Shown here piece by piece: positions 6,255 to 28,237 of a DNA stretch of 32,000 bases. The notes under the pieces were generated by a model. It ran no database searches. It worked only from the letters and a program-made list of their open reading frames with translations, and was not told the origin of the DNA. Positions within the stretch are counted from its first letter, which is position 1, and the number at the start of each line of letters is the position of its first letter. Position numbers and translations under genes: made by a program. Origin of the DNA: a cyanobacterium endosymbiont of Braarudosphaera bigelowii (GTDB lineage Bacteria > Cyanobacteriota > Cyanobacteriia > Cyanobacteriales > Microcystaceae); the NCBI RefSeq assembly GCF_020885515.1, contig NZ_AP024987.1, positions 1,230,001 through 1,262,000 on the forward strand, read 5' to 3'.

Positions 6255-6511
6255 TAGATTTTACGTTCTCCATTTCTCTTTAATGATTCTCCCCGGCAGT
6301 GAAGAATCAAGTAATTTCAGATGATTCAAAAGTGTTGATAGATTAGGGTATAAATTATAATAACCCTAGAATCTGCATTTTTTGAGCAGAAGTCAATAAA
6401 ACAACATTTGTATTTATTAATTATATCTCATAGTAAACTAATTAGTTGATAAAGTGTTACCTCTCCAAGCCATCTAAATCTTTATAAACTACATGTTTAA
6501 TAGTTGCGAAA

Positions 6512-7035
6512 ATGATAATTGTATAACTTCTTTTAATCAAAGAAGATATTTCGTAGCAGCTACTTAAACAAGATGAAATTACTATTAAAAAATTACAAAA
6601 GTTCTTAATACTAAGATTGAAAAAACTTATAGTTGTCTAATAAGTATAAAATATTAAATAATTTAAAAAAGAACACTATATGCTTACCTTCTTAATAAGT
6701 TGGGACATAATTATTTGTTAAAGCAGGATGAAAATTTATTAATATTTTTTATAGGTCTTGATAGAAGTAATAAAGAAATAATCTTGAAAAAGTAGTAAAA
6801 CCACAAGATATAACGAGCATATTAACTAATAGATACTTGAAGAAAGAATAGAAATCACTAATAAAATCTAAAATTTCTTGTTGAATATAAATATGTCGTT
6901 TCTATAATTGAAGAATTTGATGCAATAGCTTGTAATGATAAATTAGAATATTCAAATATTGTAGGGTGAAAAGAACATAACTGTGAATATTTAATCAACA
7001 TAAAAAATCATAAATTTAATGTTAAATTTTATTAA
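6512..7035 (+). pseudogene. sufR: probable decayed sufR (Fe-S sensing repressor of sufBCDS), broken by stops and frameshifts
   Basis: It sits divergent from sufB, which is the canonical cyanobacterial sufR position. Reading from ATG 6512 gives MIIV*LLLIKEDIS*QLLKQDEITIKKLQKFL. This resembles the SufR N-terminal winged-helix pattern (..KEDIL.YLLKQG.ATA.ELA..L). Another frame gives SNKYKILNNLKKN, which resembles SPQAIRRHLKDL. A third frame (6910-7035) gives EEFDAIACNDKLEYSNIVG*KEHNCEYLIN, which resembles the Cys-rich C-terminus (..GEH.CGYL..). My memory of SufR sequences is imperfect and AT-rich DNA yields K/I/L/N-rich peptides easily. Confidence 0.4.
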
Positions 7036-7047
7036 TTTACTAAATTC

Positions 7048-7088
7048 ATTATTTCAATTACATATAAGTTATATGTAATTGAAATAAT
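7048..7088. repeat. perfect 41-nt palindrome (20-nt arms around a single central G)
   Basis: The sequence is ATTATTTCAATTACATATAA-G-TTATATGTAATTGAAATAAT. I checked it by reverse-complementing. It lies 13 nt after the last stop of the putative sufR relic and about 100 nt upstream of tRNA-Thr. Confidence 0.9.
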
Positions 7089-7189
7089 ACACCACTATAT
7101 TTATTAACCTTTTTATTTATAAAAATAACAAAAATATGTTATAGTATTATGTACTTATACATAGAATACTTGTAAAGTTTCATTTTATT

Positions 7190-7262
7190 GCTTCCTTAGC
7201 TCAGTTGGTAGAGCAACTCACTTGTAATGAGTAGGTCGTCGGTTCAAGTCCGACAGGGAGCT
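7190..7262 (+). tRNA. tRNA-Thr (anticodon UGU)
   Basis: I folded the cloverleaf by hand. The acceptor stem is GCTTCCT/AGGGAGC, the D arm is GCTC-AGTTGGTA-GAGC, and the anticodon arm is ACTCA-CTTGTAA-TGAGT. The T arm is GTCGG-TTCAAGT-CCGAC and the discriminator is T. CCA is not encoded. Confidence 0.95.
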
Positions 7263-22420: not shown

Positions 22421-22725
22421 GATTTTTTGCAAAAATTAAATTTGGATAACTATAGTATTAACTAGAAAAATAAAATAGAAATACTTATCAAGGTATCATA
22501 CAGTCTACAATATATTTCATTTAATTAAAAACAGGCTAAATTGATCACCTCTTATTACATTACTTGTCATAGTTATAGTTATATGATCTTTATAATTTAA
22601 GTAAGATTCTTTTAGTCTTGACCTTCATAATTTATCATAAAAAAAATCTATATCGCATGAAATATTACATGAATATTTTTATTATTTAATAATAGAAAGT
22701 TCGGGAACCCGTACACAATGAACAG

Positions 22726-22754
22726 TTGCCAGAACTCCTAATATTTCGTTAAAT
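22726..22754 (+). promoter_or_regulatory. candidate sigma70-type groESL promoter (-35 TTGCCA, 17-nt spacer, -10 TTAAAT)
   Basis: I read this directly from the sequence. The -10 element abuts the CIRCE operator, the usual arrangement for HrcA-controlled promoters. The call is by eye only. Confidence 0.3.
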
Positions 22755-22780
22755 TAGCACTCAAGGATTAAGAGTGCTAA
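22754..22780. promoter_or_regulatory. CIRCE operator (HrcA binding site)
   Basis: The sequence is TTAGCACTC-AAGGATTAA-GAGTGCTAA, a perfect match to the consensus TTAGCACTC-N9-GAGTGCTAA. It lies 64 nt upstream of the groES ATG. Confidence 0.9.
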
Positions 22781-22844
22781 CTCTATAAAAAGTTACCTTA
22801 AAGAACTCTTGATTTTTCAATAAATATTAAAGGAGGATTTATTC

Positions 22845-23156
22845 ATGGCAGCAATCAGTATTAATGTATCTACCGTTAAGCCCCTTGGAGATCGTATTTT
22901 TCTTAAGGTCAATCCTGCTGAAGAAAAAACTGCTGGCGGTATTTTATTGCCAGATAATGCTCAAGAAAAGCCTCAAATAGGTGAAGTTGTTTCTGTTGGG
23001 CCTGGCAAACGTAATGATGATGGTAGTCGTTCTGAACTGGATGTCAAGGTAGGTGATAAAGTCCTTTACTCTAAATATGCTGGAACTGATGTCAAGCTAT
23101 CTGGAGAAGACTATGTACTACTTTCTGAAAAAGATATCCTAGCAGCTGTTGCTTAA
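22845..23156 (+). CDS. groES: co-chaperonin GroES
   Basis: This 103 aa ORF has [12 protein letters not shown] and TAGGILLPD. The RBS AAAGGAGGA is present. Confidence 0.97.
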
Positions 23157-23213
23157 AATATACATAGCAAATTCTTATTAACTTTATTTAGAATTGACAT
23201 AAAAGAGGAATAA

Positions 23214-24845
<1,632 letters not shown>

Positions 24846-24958: not shown

Positions 24959-26518
24959 CTATGATCCCGTTGCATCTCTAACACCATGAATAGTGTGCGA
25001 AAGTTCATTTGTCTCATTGAAAGCTACTCTAGTTTTAGAATTACTGACTATATCTTCACAGTTACGAAAAAAGTCTTGAATAATAGGGCCATTATGATTA
25101 ATAATATATTGTCTGATATTTTTATCATGCCAAGATCCCCTCATCTTAAAGACATTAATTGATTTAGACATTTTTCCATGATTTTCTACATATTTAAGCA
25201 TTAATATTGTATCTGTAATAGTAGAAATATGAGTCTCTGTAATAGAGTAATCCTCCATAAGCTGATCAGTTGTATTAGTAAAAAATCCTGTAATTTCTTC
25301 TTGTTTTACATATCCTGTGATTCCAGTTACAAATTGATGAAAAGCATTTTTTGTAACACCTCGAGCTAGAGCAGATAGAGAATCAATAGCAATACGAGAA
25401 GGTTTAAATCTGGAAATTTCTGACTTGATCATTTGTAAGTGATCTTCTAGACCAGCAGATTCTGGATAAGTACATAATAGTTTAAGAAGCCCTTTATGCT
25501 CCATTTCCTCAAAATTAATCCCCCAAGACATGGCATTACGAGACAACTGAGCCTTAGATTCTTCATAAGCAAATAAAATTACTCTTTCTTTTTGATGACA
25601 TCCTTCTTCTAAGAATTTACTTAAAAATAAAGTTTTTCCAGTTCCTGTAGTACCTGTTGCTAAAATAATAGAATCTTTGAAGAATCCCCCTCCACACATT
25701 TCATTAAGAGTTTGTACTCCAGAAGAAATACGTATGTTAGATGATCTTTGAGTTAATCTCATTGCTCCTAAAGGAAATATGTTAATTCCATCATTAATAA
25801 TAGTGAATGGATACTCTCCATTCATATGAGTTGTACCACGTAACTTGAGAATCTCAATTGTACGACGACGGCGCTCTCCTTCTAAAACATTACGTACAAC
25901 AATTACATTATCTGAGACAAATTCTTCAATACCAAATCTAGCAATTTGGCCATATTCTTCTATTCGTTCTGTAGTTAAGATAGAAGTAATTTCTAATTGT
26001 TTCAATCGAGATACAAGACGAAAAATTTCTCTTCTTATTACAGAAACAGCGTTATATTGTTGGAAAACTGTAGTTATAGAGTCAATAGAAACAAGTTTTG
26101 CTTTATATTTCTGAATGGCATATTGTATTCTTTCAATTAGTGCTGATAAATCAAAATTTTCAAATATTTCTTGTCCTTCAGGATCTGGGGACGCATCTAG
26201 AATAAATAAATAACCATCATCCACTAATTTTTGTAAGTCCCAGCCAAAACTATATGCGTTCTCAATAATATCATTTGGAGATTCTTCAAAAGTAACGAAA
26301 AGACCGGGATAGTCAAAATATTTAATCCCGTTATATAAAAATTGTATAGCAAGGAGTGTTTTTCCTGTTCCTGATGTTCCACTAACAAGTGTTGTTCTTC
26401 CTAAAGGTAGTCCTCCATGGGTTATTTCATCTAAACCATCTATCATAGTACGAATTTTACGAACACCGTTAAGAGCTAATTTTAATGGTATGTCTTTTCT
26501 TGAAAAAGGCTGATTCAT
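24959..26518 (-). CDS. kaiC: circadian clock protein KaiC (double RecA-like ATPase), apparently intact
   Basis: This 519 aa ORF has the CI Walker A GTSGTGKT with FEES, and the CII Walker A GTTGTGKT with YEES. The phospho-site segment ITETHISTITDT corresponds to T426/S431/T432 of S. elongatus KaiC. KMRGSWHDK and a C-terminal tail are present. Confidence 0.95.
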   Translation of the reverse strand: MNQPFSRKDIPLKLALNGVRKIRTMIDGLDEITHGGLPLGRTTLVSGTSGTGKTLLAIQFLYNGIKYFDYPGLFVTFEESPNDIIENAYSFGWDLQKLVDDGYLFILDASPDPEGQEIFENFDLSALIERIQYAIQKYKAKLVSIDSITTVFQQYNAVSVIRREIFRLVSRLKQLEITSILTTERIEEYGQIARFGIEEFVSDNVIVVRNVLEGERRRRTIEILKLRGTTHMNGEYPFTIINDGINIFPLGAMRLTQRSSNIRISSGVQTLNEMCGGGFFKDSIILATGTTGTGKTLFLSKFLEEGCHQKERVILFAYEESKAQLSRNAMSWGINFEEMEHKGLLKLLCTYPESAGLEDHLQMIKSEISRFKPSRIAIDSLSALARGVTKNAFHQFVTGITGYVKQEEITGFFTNTTDQLMEDYSITETHISTITDTILMLKYVENHGKMSKSINVFKMRGSWHDKNIRQYIINHNGPIIQDFFRNCEDIVSNSKTRVAFNETNELSHTIHGVRDATGS

Positions 26519-26608
26519 AACTTCTTAATTAATTATATTATATTGAAATTTTTAATGGAACAACAGAAGAAAGCTGAATCTTAAATATTTTTATAAGGAG
26601 AATCTAGC

Positions 26609-26792
26609 TTAATTTAAAAAATCTTTTTTGCTATAAAAAATTTTAGAATTGTAATCGCAGATTTGTATTAATAACCAATATATTATTTTTTATTGTAATT
26701 TCTTTAAAAAATCAATAATTTTTGTATACAAATTCTTTCAGCTTTATTTATTTATATCTATTTGGACTGTAGTAAATAATTAATTTATATAG
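26609..26792 (-). pseudogene. kaiB: decayed kaiB relic (multiple stops, at least one frameshift, internal deletions)
   Basis: It lies between the kaiA relic and kaiC. In one frame the minus strand reads LYKLIIYYSPNRYK*IKLKEFVY, compared with KaiB [32 protein letters not shown]. Shifted one frame it reads KIIDFLKKLQ*KIIYWLLIQICDYNSK, compared with KVIDVLKNPQ...DKILATPTL...RIIGDLSDRE. The motif order is collinear, but the peptides are short and AT-biased. Confidence 0.5.
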
Positions 26793-26833
26793 TTAGTTAC
26801 TGTACAGTCAGAATTCATTTTTAATCTTACAAT

Positions 26834-27200
26834 TTATTTTAAAGTAGAAAAACGATATATCTCTTCTAAATAGGCAAAGACATCAATAATAGTTAAATCA
26901 TAATCTAAAAATATTTTATATTTATCTCTTTTAACTTGATCTATTGTGGTGGTTCATCAATTAATTCCATACGAATTTTTAAAATCTGAGAAATTGATTT
27001 ATTGGTAGCAAGAGTTGTTTAATAAATTAATTAGTAAATTTACTGATTTTGACATAGTTTTAATAACTTTTTACTACTTCTCAGAAAAGTTGCAATAAGA
27101 ATATTGGTTATCTTTTCTATAATAGTTCTCCAAGTATTTAAGCTTTTAAACTAATCTGTATTTTTTTAGCAATAAAAATATTTCTCGTAATATGATTAGG
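26834..27200 (-). pseudogene. kaiA: decayed kaiA relic; the C-terminal KaiC-binding domain is recognisable and the gene may extend to about 27700
   Basis: Minus-strand fragments run in collinear order. SVNLLINLLNNSCYQ* compares with KaiA ..N.SIDNFVNMAFFAD. After a frameshift, SISQILKIRMELIDEPPQ*IKLKE compares with VTKVVEIHMELMDEFAKKLRVEG. After another frameshift, IFLDYDLTIIDVFAYLEEIYRFSTLK* compares with ILLDYRLTLIDVIAHLCEMYRRSIPRE, with about 15 of 23 residues identical by eye. A weaker match further upstream is SYYEKYFYC, compared with VYYKR...F.RNL. Confidence 0.7.
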
Positions 27201-27760
27201 CCCTAAGCATCAAGAAAAAGTGACATCATAGTTAATAAATGTTTTAATAATGAGCTTTAGCATTATATTAAAAATAATCTAGAAATTAACTATTATATTT
27301 AGTAAATCTTTCCTTTATATTAAAGTTTATTCAAAAAAGTGTAAGTGATGTTGGAATACTTTATTTACAAAGTTTGTGTAAGATATATATTACACTTAAT
27401 TTCTGCTATATTAATGGACTATTTATTAATAGTTAGTTTTCTCTAAAGAAACGTAATAGTTTTTTGACTCTAATTATGATATAGATATGATGATTTCAAT
27501 TCCTCAATTTATTATTTAGTTACTAAACAATAAGTTGATCACTAGTCTAAAGATAAATTAATGTCTCAGCATACAATGTTCTTCAAGAAAATAGGAAGAA
27601 TTCAAATGAAATCTTTCGCTAAAAATTTAACATAAATATTTATCTTTTGTTTTCACATTAGTTAAAAGTAAAGAAGACTGCATTTATTAATAAGTAAATG
27701 AAGATTAAAATAAATTATGTTCAACTTAATATTTTCATTAATAAAAGGTGATATTTAATA

Positions 27761-28237
27761 ATGATAAGATTAGCAACAAGAATTGAAGCAGTTTTATACC
27801 TTAAAGGTCAATCTCTGAGTCTGGTCGATATTGCTAAATATCTGAACTGTAAAACTGAAGTTGTACAAGATGCAATAATTGAATTAATGTCTGATTACGC
27901 ATATCGTGACAGTGCACTGGAAGTTATAGAAACAGAAAATGGTTATAGCTTACAACTCCGTCCAGTCTTTAACGATCTTACAGACAACATAATTCCTGCC
28001 GAATTAGGGAAAGCAGTGTTGAGAACTTTAGCGGCAATTGCTCTCAAGAATCCTATTGTTCAAACTGAATTAATTGAATTGAGAGGGAATAGTGCTTATC
28101 AACATGTACAAAAATTAGTAGAGCTAGATTTTATTCGTAAATATAGCAAGAAACCTGGACGTTCCTATCTTTTATCAATTACCCCTAAATTTCATCAGTA
28201 TTTCGAAATTGATCAGCTTCCAAAGTCAGTGAATTAG
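27761..28237 (+). CDS. scpB: segregation and condensation protein B (ScpB)
   Basis: This 158 aa ORF has two winged-helix modules with the ScpB pattern (IEAVLYLKGQSLSLVDIAKYL...; LGKAVLRTLAAIALKNPIVQTELIELRG). Confidence 0.8.
   Translation: MIRLATRIEAVLYLKGQSLSLVDIAKYLNCKTEVVQDAIIELMSDYAYRDSALEVIETENGYSLQLRPVFNDLTDNIIPAELGKAVLRTLAAIALKNPIVQTELIELRGNSAYQHVQKLVELDFIRKYSKKPGRSYLLSITPKFHQYFEIDQLPKSVN

Follow-up and report, generated by a model that had tools for sequence, protein, structure and literature searches.

Which parts of a kaiA-kaiB-kaiC cluster survive in a cyanobacterium that retains KaiC alone, and by what route were the other genes lost? The question is raised by the DNA of a cyanobacterial endosymbiont of Braarudosphaera bigelowii, of which we analyzed one stretch of 32,000 nucleotides (nt), hereafter called the window (contig NZ_AP024987.1, positions 1,230,001 to 1,262,000). 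Here, an intact kaiC gene is separated from the scpB gene by a spacer of 1242 nt (26519-27760). The encoded KaiC protein (24959-26518) does not differ from that of Candidatus Atelocyanobacterium thalassa isolate SIO64986 (UCYN-A2; 100% identity), and both the protein and the 1242-nt spacer recur on many marine metagenome contigs. The loss of kaiA and kaiB from UCYN-A, with only kaiC remaining intact, has been published (PMC6315102, PMC5520375, PMC11065991, PMC13468521); Axmann et al. 2014, as cited in PMC6315102, and Schmelling et al. 2017 (PMC5520375) describe UCYN-A as lacking both genes. The original prediction for this locus, whose mention of these losses matches the literature (PMC6315102, PMC5520375), held that kaiA and kaiB persist as relics upstream of an intact kaiC, left behind by point decay rather than excision. 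Our data support this proposal for kaiA (z≈31) and for the intact kaiC, but not for kaiB. The spacer is very probably the wreck of a canonical kaiA-kaiB-kaiC locus, in which kaiA decayed in place and kaiB was mostly deleted.

A KaiA pseudogene relic upstream of kaiC

When both strands of the spacer were scanned, the longest open reading frame (ORF) comprised 33 amino acids (aa), in line with the prediction that neither strand contains an ORF of at least 60 aa. The guanine-cytosine (GC) content of the spacer is 0.18-0.24 (~21%) vs 0.30-0.42 in the flanking genes, and Rfam and tRNA scans gave no match in 26519-27760. For comparison, relatives were gathered by a KaiC scan with one genome per species, yielding 80 loci. 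At 69 of these, both kaiA (~300 aa) and kaiB (~104 aa) were identified directly upstream of kaiC on the same strand, confirming that relatives carry the two genes at the place taken by the spacer. The estimate that the spacer has about the length of kaiA plus kaiB was roughly right; yet, with 1242 nt, it is shorter than the distance from kaiA start to kaiC start in every one of the 69 relatives (1287-2057 nt, median 1477).

Using the 69 KaiA proteins of these relatives as tblastn queries, we obtained a match at 26846-27187 on the kaiC strand, with 28-33% identity over ~135 aa and extending through stops. We also aligned the DNA with average-score BLOSUM62 profiles, employing a local, frameshift-tolerant procedure in which stops were scored as -4. 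The KaiA profile reached 123.0 on this A2 relic, as compared to a mean of 27.3 (standard deviation 3.1, maximum 39.2) for 200 dinucleotide-preserving shuffles, none of which attained the observed score (0/200; z≈31). The reversed profile (26.3) and the reverse-complement strand (27.9) remained at noise. Both motif strings on which the KaiA claim had been built, SISQILKIRMELIDE and IFLDYDLTIIDVFAYLEEIYRFS, fall inside this alignment, far above chance (123 vs 27±3), and the frameshift-aware comparison with shuffled sequences, proposed in advance as a check, thus came out clearly in favour of KaiA. The stitched translation of the A2 relic matched the Pfam family of the KaiA C-terminal domain (PF07688) with E=7.2e-15 (55.7 bits, cut-off 22.2), and a DNA profile built from the 450 nt at the 3' end of the relatives' kaiA genes detected the relic in nhmmer with E=1.4e-13. 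The relic is positioned directly upstream of kaiC and on the same strand, as is kaiA in the 69 relatives. It ends with a stop at 26834, as predicted, and its 5' limit at ~27187 lies beyond the part that had originally been traced.

Other UCYN-A sublineages, obtained via KaiC homologues and their contigs, carry the relic as well, and scpB adjoins the kaiC spacer in every sublineage examined, preserving the same synteny. In UCYN-A4 (locus L001; KaiC 89% identical, spacer of 1314 nt), the KaiA profile score was 157.6 (z≈40), with E=1.5e-22 and 80.5 bits for PF07688 and 1e-23 in nhmmer. In a UCYN-A1-type lineage (L091-L093; KaiC 88% identical, spacer of 846 nt), whose KaiC clusters at 90% with ADB95448.1 of UCYN-A1, the profile score was 91.8 and the nhmmer value 4e-4. 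Could the similarity nevertheless be a chance likeness, arising from an AT-rich translation full of Lys, Ile, Asn and Leu? At ~21% GC, the spacer yields many strings rich in K, I, L, N, F and Y, which is exactly the case of KaiB considered below. For KaiA, such a coincidence has a vanishingly small probability, given the z values of 31-40 against dinucleotide shuffles, the noise-level scores of the reversed profile and the opposite strand, the E values of 7e-15 and 1.5e-22 with Pfam and of 1e-13 and 1e-23 with the DNA hidden Markov model, and the occurrence of the relic in three lineages. At 26834-27187, the KaiA C-terminal domain is truly preserved as a pseudogene relic.

The N-terminal half of KaiA left no comparable trace. 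On 27188-27760, the KaiA N-domain profile scored 19.2 vs 18.1±2.2 for shuffles, 52 of 200 of which reached this value, and searching all three lineages for the N-domain returned only chance-level matches of 6-15 residues (e.g. ENFDCL in A4 and FLDCF in A1) that were not collinear. The N-terminal pseudo-receiver domain (PF21714), which some functional KaiA proteins also lack, was likewise not recovered from 27188-27760. In simulations of in-place decay, the less-conserved KaiA N-domain falls near noise at the decay level of the relic. The features of the locus are compiled in Table 1.

Table 1. Features of the kaiC-scpB locus in the window and lesions of the KaiA relic in three UCYN-A lineages.
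Feature	Window coordinates	Strand	Evidence or remark
kaiC, intact, 519 aa	24959-26518	-	KaiC structure matches; ratio of nonsynonymous to synonymous substitution rates (dN/dS)
Conserved 61-nt block adjoining the 5' side of kaiC	26519-26579	-	93% A2-A4 identity; putative promoter, leader or ribosome-binding-site role
AT-rich DNA at the expected position of kaiB and flanking spacers	26580-26833	-	KaiB similarity not above chance
KaiA C-terminal domain pseudogene relic, approximately KaiA residues 146-287, terminal TAA at 26834-26836	26834-27187	-	
AT-rich DNA between relic and scpB; presumed former site of the KaiA N-domain and of the divergent promoters	27188-27760	.	No detectable similarity left
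scpB, 158 aa, divergent neighbour	27761-28237	+	PF04079 (SMC_ScpB)
Stop TAA at the codon of reference residue E163	27146-27148	-	Same stop in UCYN-A4; GAG (Glu) in A1-type
Stop TAA at the codon of reference residue E223	27027-27029	-	TAG stop in UCYN-A4; region deleted in A1-type
Stop TAG at the codon of reference residue Q252	26941-26943	-	A2 only
UCYN-A4 relic: 6 stops (E163, E223, 181, 189, 210, 219), 1 frameshift, 4-codon deletion			
A1-type relic: 4 stops (residues 178, 188, 198 and one in an inserted codon), 6 frameshifts, two larger deletions			

Lesions, neutrality and timing of the kaiA loss

Besides its three in-frame stops, the A2 relic contains four frameshifts and lacks 21 reference residues, removed by deletions of 4, 13 and 4 codons. 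The uninterrupted frame expected of a functional KaiA is absent in A2, and A4 and A1 are broken by different sets of lesions. Comparing related sublineages, as had been suggested, thus uncovered independent lesions in A2, A4 and the A1-type lineage. Four lesions are common to A2 and A4, namely the stops at E163 and E223, the 4-codon deletion and a frameshift at 260/261. The A1-type relic shares none of these four; no lesion is clearly common to the three lineages, and the remaining ones are lineage-specific. Parsimony reconstruction, with the free-living consensus as outgroup, restored the consensus residue at 82 of 129 positions (64%), including 54 of 72 highly conserved ones. Single relics keep 44-50 consensus positions (38-47%), and intact KaiA proteins have a median of 81%. 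Together, the parsimony restoration and the lesions common to A2 and A4 indicate that kaiA was already dead in the A2/A4 ancestor and much closer to intact at the crown node.

We infer that kaiA was inactivated at approximately the base of the sublineage radiation. It is conceivable, though we consider it doubtful, that the split of the UCYN-A sublineages found kaiA still intact or freshly inactivated. The KaiABC oscillator would then have been abandoned late, long after the onset of the symbiosis and perhaps separately in different sublineages. This late loss is suggested because A1-type and A2/A4 relics share no lesion in the 135-codon C-domain and because parsimony restores a largely intact domain at the crown. 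The earlier notion that traceable relics would date the loss as relatively recent is not borne out, as the relic occurs in three sublineages with a synonymous divergence of 0.46-0.8.

Judged from the aligned sublineages, the relic is evolving at a neutral rate, with no sign of purifying selection. A2 and A4 have an identity of 0.70 across the relic, as compared to 0.68-0.73 in the other parts of the spacer (0.725 in 26580-26833; 0.684, with 8 gap events, in 27188-27760), and the two spacers are separated by 16 gap events, amounting to 273 nt in total. Four-fold-site differences in kaiC, scpB and groEL amount to 0.22-0.31, and the proportion of synonymous differences (pS) to 0.35-0.46. Variation within A2 populations affects 1.0-1.3% of the sites in the spacer vs 0.3% in kaiC (~4x). 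As a side observation, UCYN-A2-type contigs from several oceans (L081-L088) display a fixed set of ~13 spacer differences from the window, and the Logan assembly DRR256276 (L087) equals the window across scpB, spacer and kaiC. The fixed differences suggest that two closely related A2 populations may exist.

The one part of the spacer that departs from this pattern adjoins kaiC. Its first 61 nt (26519-26579) are 93% identical between A2 and A4, as compared to 68-73% across the remaining spacer. In the A1-type lineage, the block is recognisable immediately after the KaiA relic; the four-way MAFFT alignment had put the 3' end of this lineage's spacer in the wrong place, and on inspection the last ~60 nt of that spacer match the conserved block. 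We consider the block probably to be a kaiC promoter or leader, and carrying it would be the sole present role of the spacer. A scan of the spacer for consensus promoters and terminators found fewer promoter-like sites than in shuffles and no terminators, and did not flag the 61-nt block. The ancestry of the block was addressed with a profile built from the DNA between kaiB and kaiC in 57 relatives, which showed that this DNA is not conserved among them; the visual likeness of the block to the loci L094 and L098 was not counted as evidence of ancestral intergenic DNA. When JGI metagenome contigs were scanned for exact matches to the conserved sequence next to kaiC, none was returned.

These data also bear on whether the region might still function, either by encoding a short KaiA-derived peptide, comparable to the short KaiA known from Nostocales or to the truncated form in Prochlorococcus, or as a structured RNA leader regulating kaiC. 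The persistence of the relic in three sublineages of a strongly reduced genome would fit such a role, as would the conservation of the kaiC-proximal 61 nt. However, the 33-aa ORF that is the longest of the spacer resides on the other strand, the stops, frameshifts and deletions differ from lineage to lineage, and the relic has diverged to the same extent as the remaining spacer and as synonymous sites. Given also that the Rfam and tRNA scans were without match and that A1 has lost large parts of the region, a retained function is very unlikely, and we hold to the reading of a dead kaiA relic.

The fate of kaiB

For kaiB, the original prediction had listed four motifs that follow the KaiA relic. 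The strings are present in the frames given, but their scores are no better than those of AT-matched shuffles or of the reversed profile, an outcome that the prediction itself had named as speaking against a relic. On 26519-26845 of A2, the best KaiB profile score was 27.8, compared to 25.0±3.6 for shuffles, and 100 of 500 shuffles reached it; in the homologous A4 region the score was 25.2, reached by 165 of 500. Relaxing the gap and frameshift costs, which admits the four-piece chain, raised the scores to 45.7 in A2 (p=0.066; shuffles 36.3±6.1) and 41.4 in A4 (p=0.077). At the same costs, the reversed KaiB profile scored 41.8 (A2) and 42.4 (A4), and other tiles of the spacer up to 44.9. Moreover, the alignments assign homologous A2 and A4 DNA to different KaiB residues. 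In a test using an ambiguous ancestor, in which each column could take the A2 or the A4 base, three penalty sets gave p=0.31, 0.06 and 0.09, with the reversed profile scoring equally well or higher. The Pfam KaiB family (PF07689) did not match the stitched string of the original prediction at E≤10, nhmmer found no kaiB match in the expected region, and tblastn likewise returned none.

The power of these tests was assessed by a simulation in which the genes of L094, the closest relative and our stand-in for the ancestor, were decayed with AT-biased substitutions and indels. Intact genes score 463 for KaiB (315 nt) and 543 for the KaiA C-domain (462 nt). The KaiA C-domain arrives at the observed 123-158 when a fraction of ~0.3-0.4 has been hit. 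At this KaiA-calibrated decay, an in-situ KaiB relic would be expected to score 100-150 on average (5% quantile 47-77), and the observed values are 25-28. When large deletions were included in the simulation, retention of at least 60% of kaiB proved hard to reconcile with the data. The dimensions of the locus point in the same direction: the interval from kaiA stop to kaiC start is ~316 nt in A2, ~300 in A4 and ~80 in the A1-type lineage, all below the minimum of the 69 relatives (397-1150 nt, median 522), and the A1-type lineage is devoid of a counterpart of 26580-26833. Because the KaiB tests are negative, simulated in-situ decay predicts a detectable relic, and the kaiA-kaiC interval is too short, kaiB seems to have been removed mostly by deletion.

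The view that both genes are in-situ relics, produced by point mutations and small frameshifts without any excision, is half correct, as it describes kaiA. As to kaiB, it can draw on the four KaiB-like strings, which stand in the right order between relic and kaiC, and on the relaxed-penalty chain (45.7 vs 36.3±6.1, p=0.066). That chain is, however, closely approached by the reversed KaiB profile (41.8) and by other spacer tiles (44.9), and pooling A2 and A4 in the ambiguous ancestor gave p=0.06-0.3 and scores that the reversed profile equalled or exceeded. The mapping of homologous A2 and A4 DNA to different KaiB residues, the silence of Pfam and nhmmer, the score of 100-150 predicted for whole-gene in-situ decay and an interval that falls short of that of every relative by at least 80 nt render this view unlikely. 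Point decay rather than excision is not supported for the operon as a whole: the kaiB relic it predicts was not detected, the interval is short and shrinks to ~80 nt in the A1-type lineage, and the spacer is rich in indels.

Alternatively, kaiB might have been lost much earlier than kaiA, or have decayed faster, eroding in place beyond recognition without a large deletion. Non-detection by itself cannot tell deletion from very old decay, and A2 and A4 still contain ~250 unassigned nt. On the other hand, the interval is too short to accommodate the spacers plus a 315-nt kaiB, and the conservation of KaiB, which far exceeds that of the KaiA C-domain, should keep it detectable for longer. In addition, KaiA should be useless without KaiB, and a long lag between the two losses would thus not be expected. 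We regard this scenario as quite improbable, and favour the removal of kaiB mostly by deletion.

A number of points weigh against the combined picture of a decayed kaiA and a deleted kaiB. The decay simulation used a simple substitution-and-indel model with L094 as a stand-in ancestor, and it is still compatible with scattered kaiB fragments, provided that at most 30% of the gene are retained. The relaxed KaiB scores lie on the high side of the null distribution (p≈0.07), and the top local KaiB match, KIIDFLKKLQ vs KVIDVLKNPQ, occurs at a plausible position. The segment 26580-26833 may consist of intergenic remains, perhaps with small scraps of kaiB. The presumed absence of further kaiA or kaiB copies is based on published work and on a search confined to this window. 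The 61-nt block is a putative promoter, and kaiC transcripts are reported as undetected in UCYN-A (PMC6315102).

In the scenario that we favour, the symbiont would no longer have needed a self-sustained KaiABC oscillator, and selection on kaiA and kaiB would have ceased. kaiA would then have decayed in place through AT-biased substitutions creating stops, 1-nt indels and deletions of 12-50 nt, leaving its best conserved part, the C-terminal KaiC-binding domain, still readable and the N-terminal half beyond recognition. In the case of kaiB, most or all of the gene would have been removed by one or more larger deletions instead of base-by-base erosion; its place would now be taken by an unrecognisable stretch of ~250 nt in A2 and A4 and would be empty in the A1-type lineage.

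KaiC without partners, and comparison with other kai loci

KaiC of the window has two RecA-like domains, matches solved KaiC structures with E ~1e-258 and retains the P-loops GTSGTGKT and GTTGTGKT, the catalytic glutamates, the FEES and YEES motifs and the phosphorylation segment HISTITDT. With dN/dS values of 0.10-0.12 among sublineages, it is under purifying selection. By these motifs and this selection pattern, the protein is to be classed, at the sequence level, as a KaiC of functional type. To locate its deviations, we counted changes at the columns for which 82 relatives show a conservation of 90% or more. UCYN-A KaiC deviates at 7% of such columns in CI, at 13-16% in CII and at 44-81% in the A-loop and C-terminal tail. 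The degenerate A-loop and tail (window 24959-25060, residues ~487-519) are found in all UCYN-A sublineages compared, and the A1-type KaiC is missing its last ~15 residues. Furthermore, the otherwise invariant VVG at residues 118-120 (window 26161-26169) is changed to IFE in all three lineages. We take the KaiC tail to be the KaiA-binding region and residues ~116-123 to be the KaiB-binding loop. The changes in the tail and at 118-120 would be consistent with a loss of KaiA and KaiB binding. The decayed KaiA-binding tail, combined with strong purifying selection elsewhere in KaiC, points to a role of KaiC that may be independent of KaiA and KaiB. KaiC also evolves several-fold faster within UCYN-A than the housekeeping proteins GroES and GroEL (groES/groEL, window 22845-24845), with a dN/dS of 0.11 vs 0.01-0.03. 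Among A1, A2 and A4, the GroES protein is 100% identical, GroEL 96.5-97.6% and KaiC 87-89%.

Two further gene-poor segments were seen in the window. One, at 6255-7189, spans ~935 nt without an ORF of at least 80 aa, adjoins a tRNA gene (7190-7262) and could be another gene relic. The other, at 22433-22844, is an AT-rich gap of 412 nt (GC ~0.22-0.29) between a 557-aa ORF and groES. Among the relatives, the endosymbiont of Rhopalodia fuxianensis (CP191495.1; L097:2207-3495) appeared as a candidate for a parallel kaiA truncation and kaiB loss, which we rejected, the gap being a run of masked N. The otherwise identical locus L098 contains an intact kaiA (294 aa) and kaiB (104 aa), and hence this endosymbiont keeps the full kaiABC cluster, unlike UCYN-A.

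UCYN-A is now regarded as an early-stage nitrogen-fixing organelle and is unusual among cyanobacteria in possessing KaiC without KaiA or KaiB. The published accounts of UCYN-A that we consulted describe gene absence alone, to which we add the kaiA pseudogene relic, its shared and independent lesions and the probable route of loss. In the searchable literature, the combination of Atelocyanobacterium, kaiA and pseudogene yielded no report of a kaiA relic in UCYN-A. A legible kaiA pseudogene at the ancestral locus argues for loss in place from a normal kaiABC cluster, probably by point and small-indel decay for kaiA and by larger deletion for kaiB, and it offers a means of ordering the loss of the clock relative to the sublineage split. 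The gain is incremental: the gene losses themselves had been published, and the relic is a new example of ordinary pseudogene decay in an organism of high interest.

The canonical kaiA-kaiB-kaiC cluster, of the Synechococcus elongatus PCC 7942 type and present in the 69 relatives (e.g. Synechocystis, Microcystis, Chroococcus and the Rhopalodia endosymbiont), has the same order and strand as the elements traced here. Compared with these relatives, UCYN-A2 KaiC is 77-81% identical and keeps the catalytic and phosphorylation motifs, whereas kaiA is reduced to a dead fragment of the C-terminal domain and kaiB is undetectable. The upstream neighbour differs as well, being scpB in UCYN-A and a histidine kinase gene in the closest relatives. 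Pseudogene decay and deletional bias shape reduced endosymbiont genomes: substitutions are AT-biased, stops and frameshifts accumulate, small deletions are numerous and some large ones occur, and divergence is neutral. Measured against this general pattern, the decay of the UCYN-A locus is ordinary, except that the relic is still legible after a synonymous divergence (dS) of ~0.5-0.8 between sublineages. Prochlorococcus is described as keeping a KaiA that is truncated and has no function (PMC8874327, which cites Holtzendorff et al. 2008, as does PMC11065991). The two cases are alike in the secondary loss of KaiA during genome streamlining and in the non-functional remnant beside the remaining kai genes. 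They differ in that Prochlorococcus keeps kaiB and operates a KaiBC hourglass, whereas UCYN-A lost kaiB too and is left with KaiC alone.

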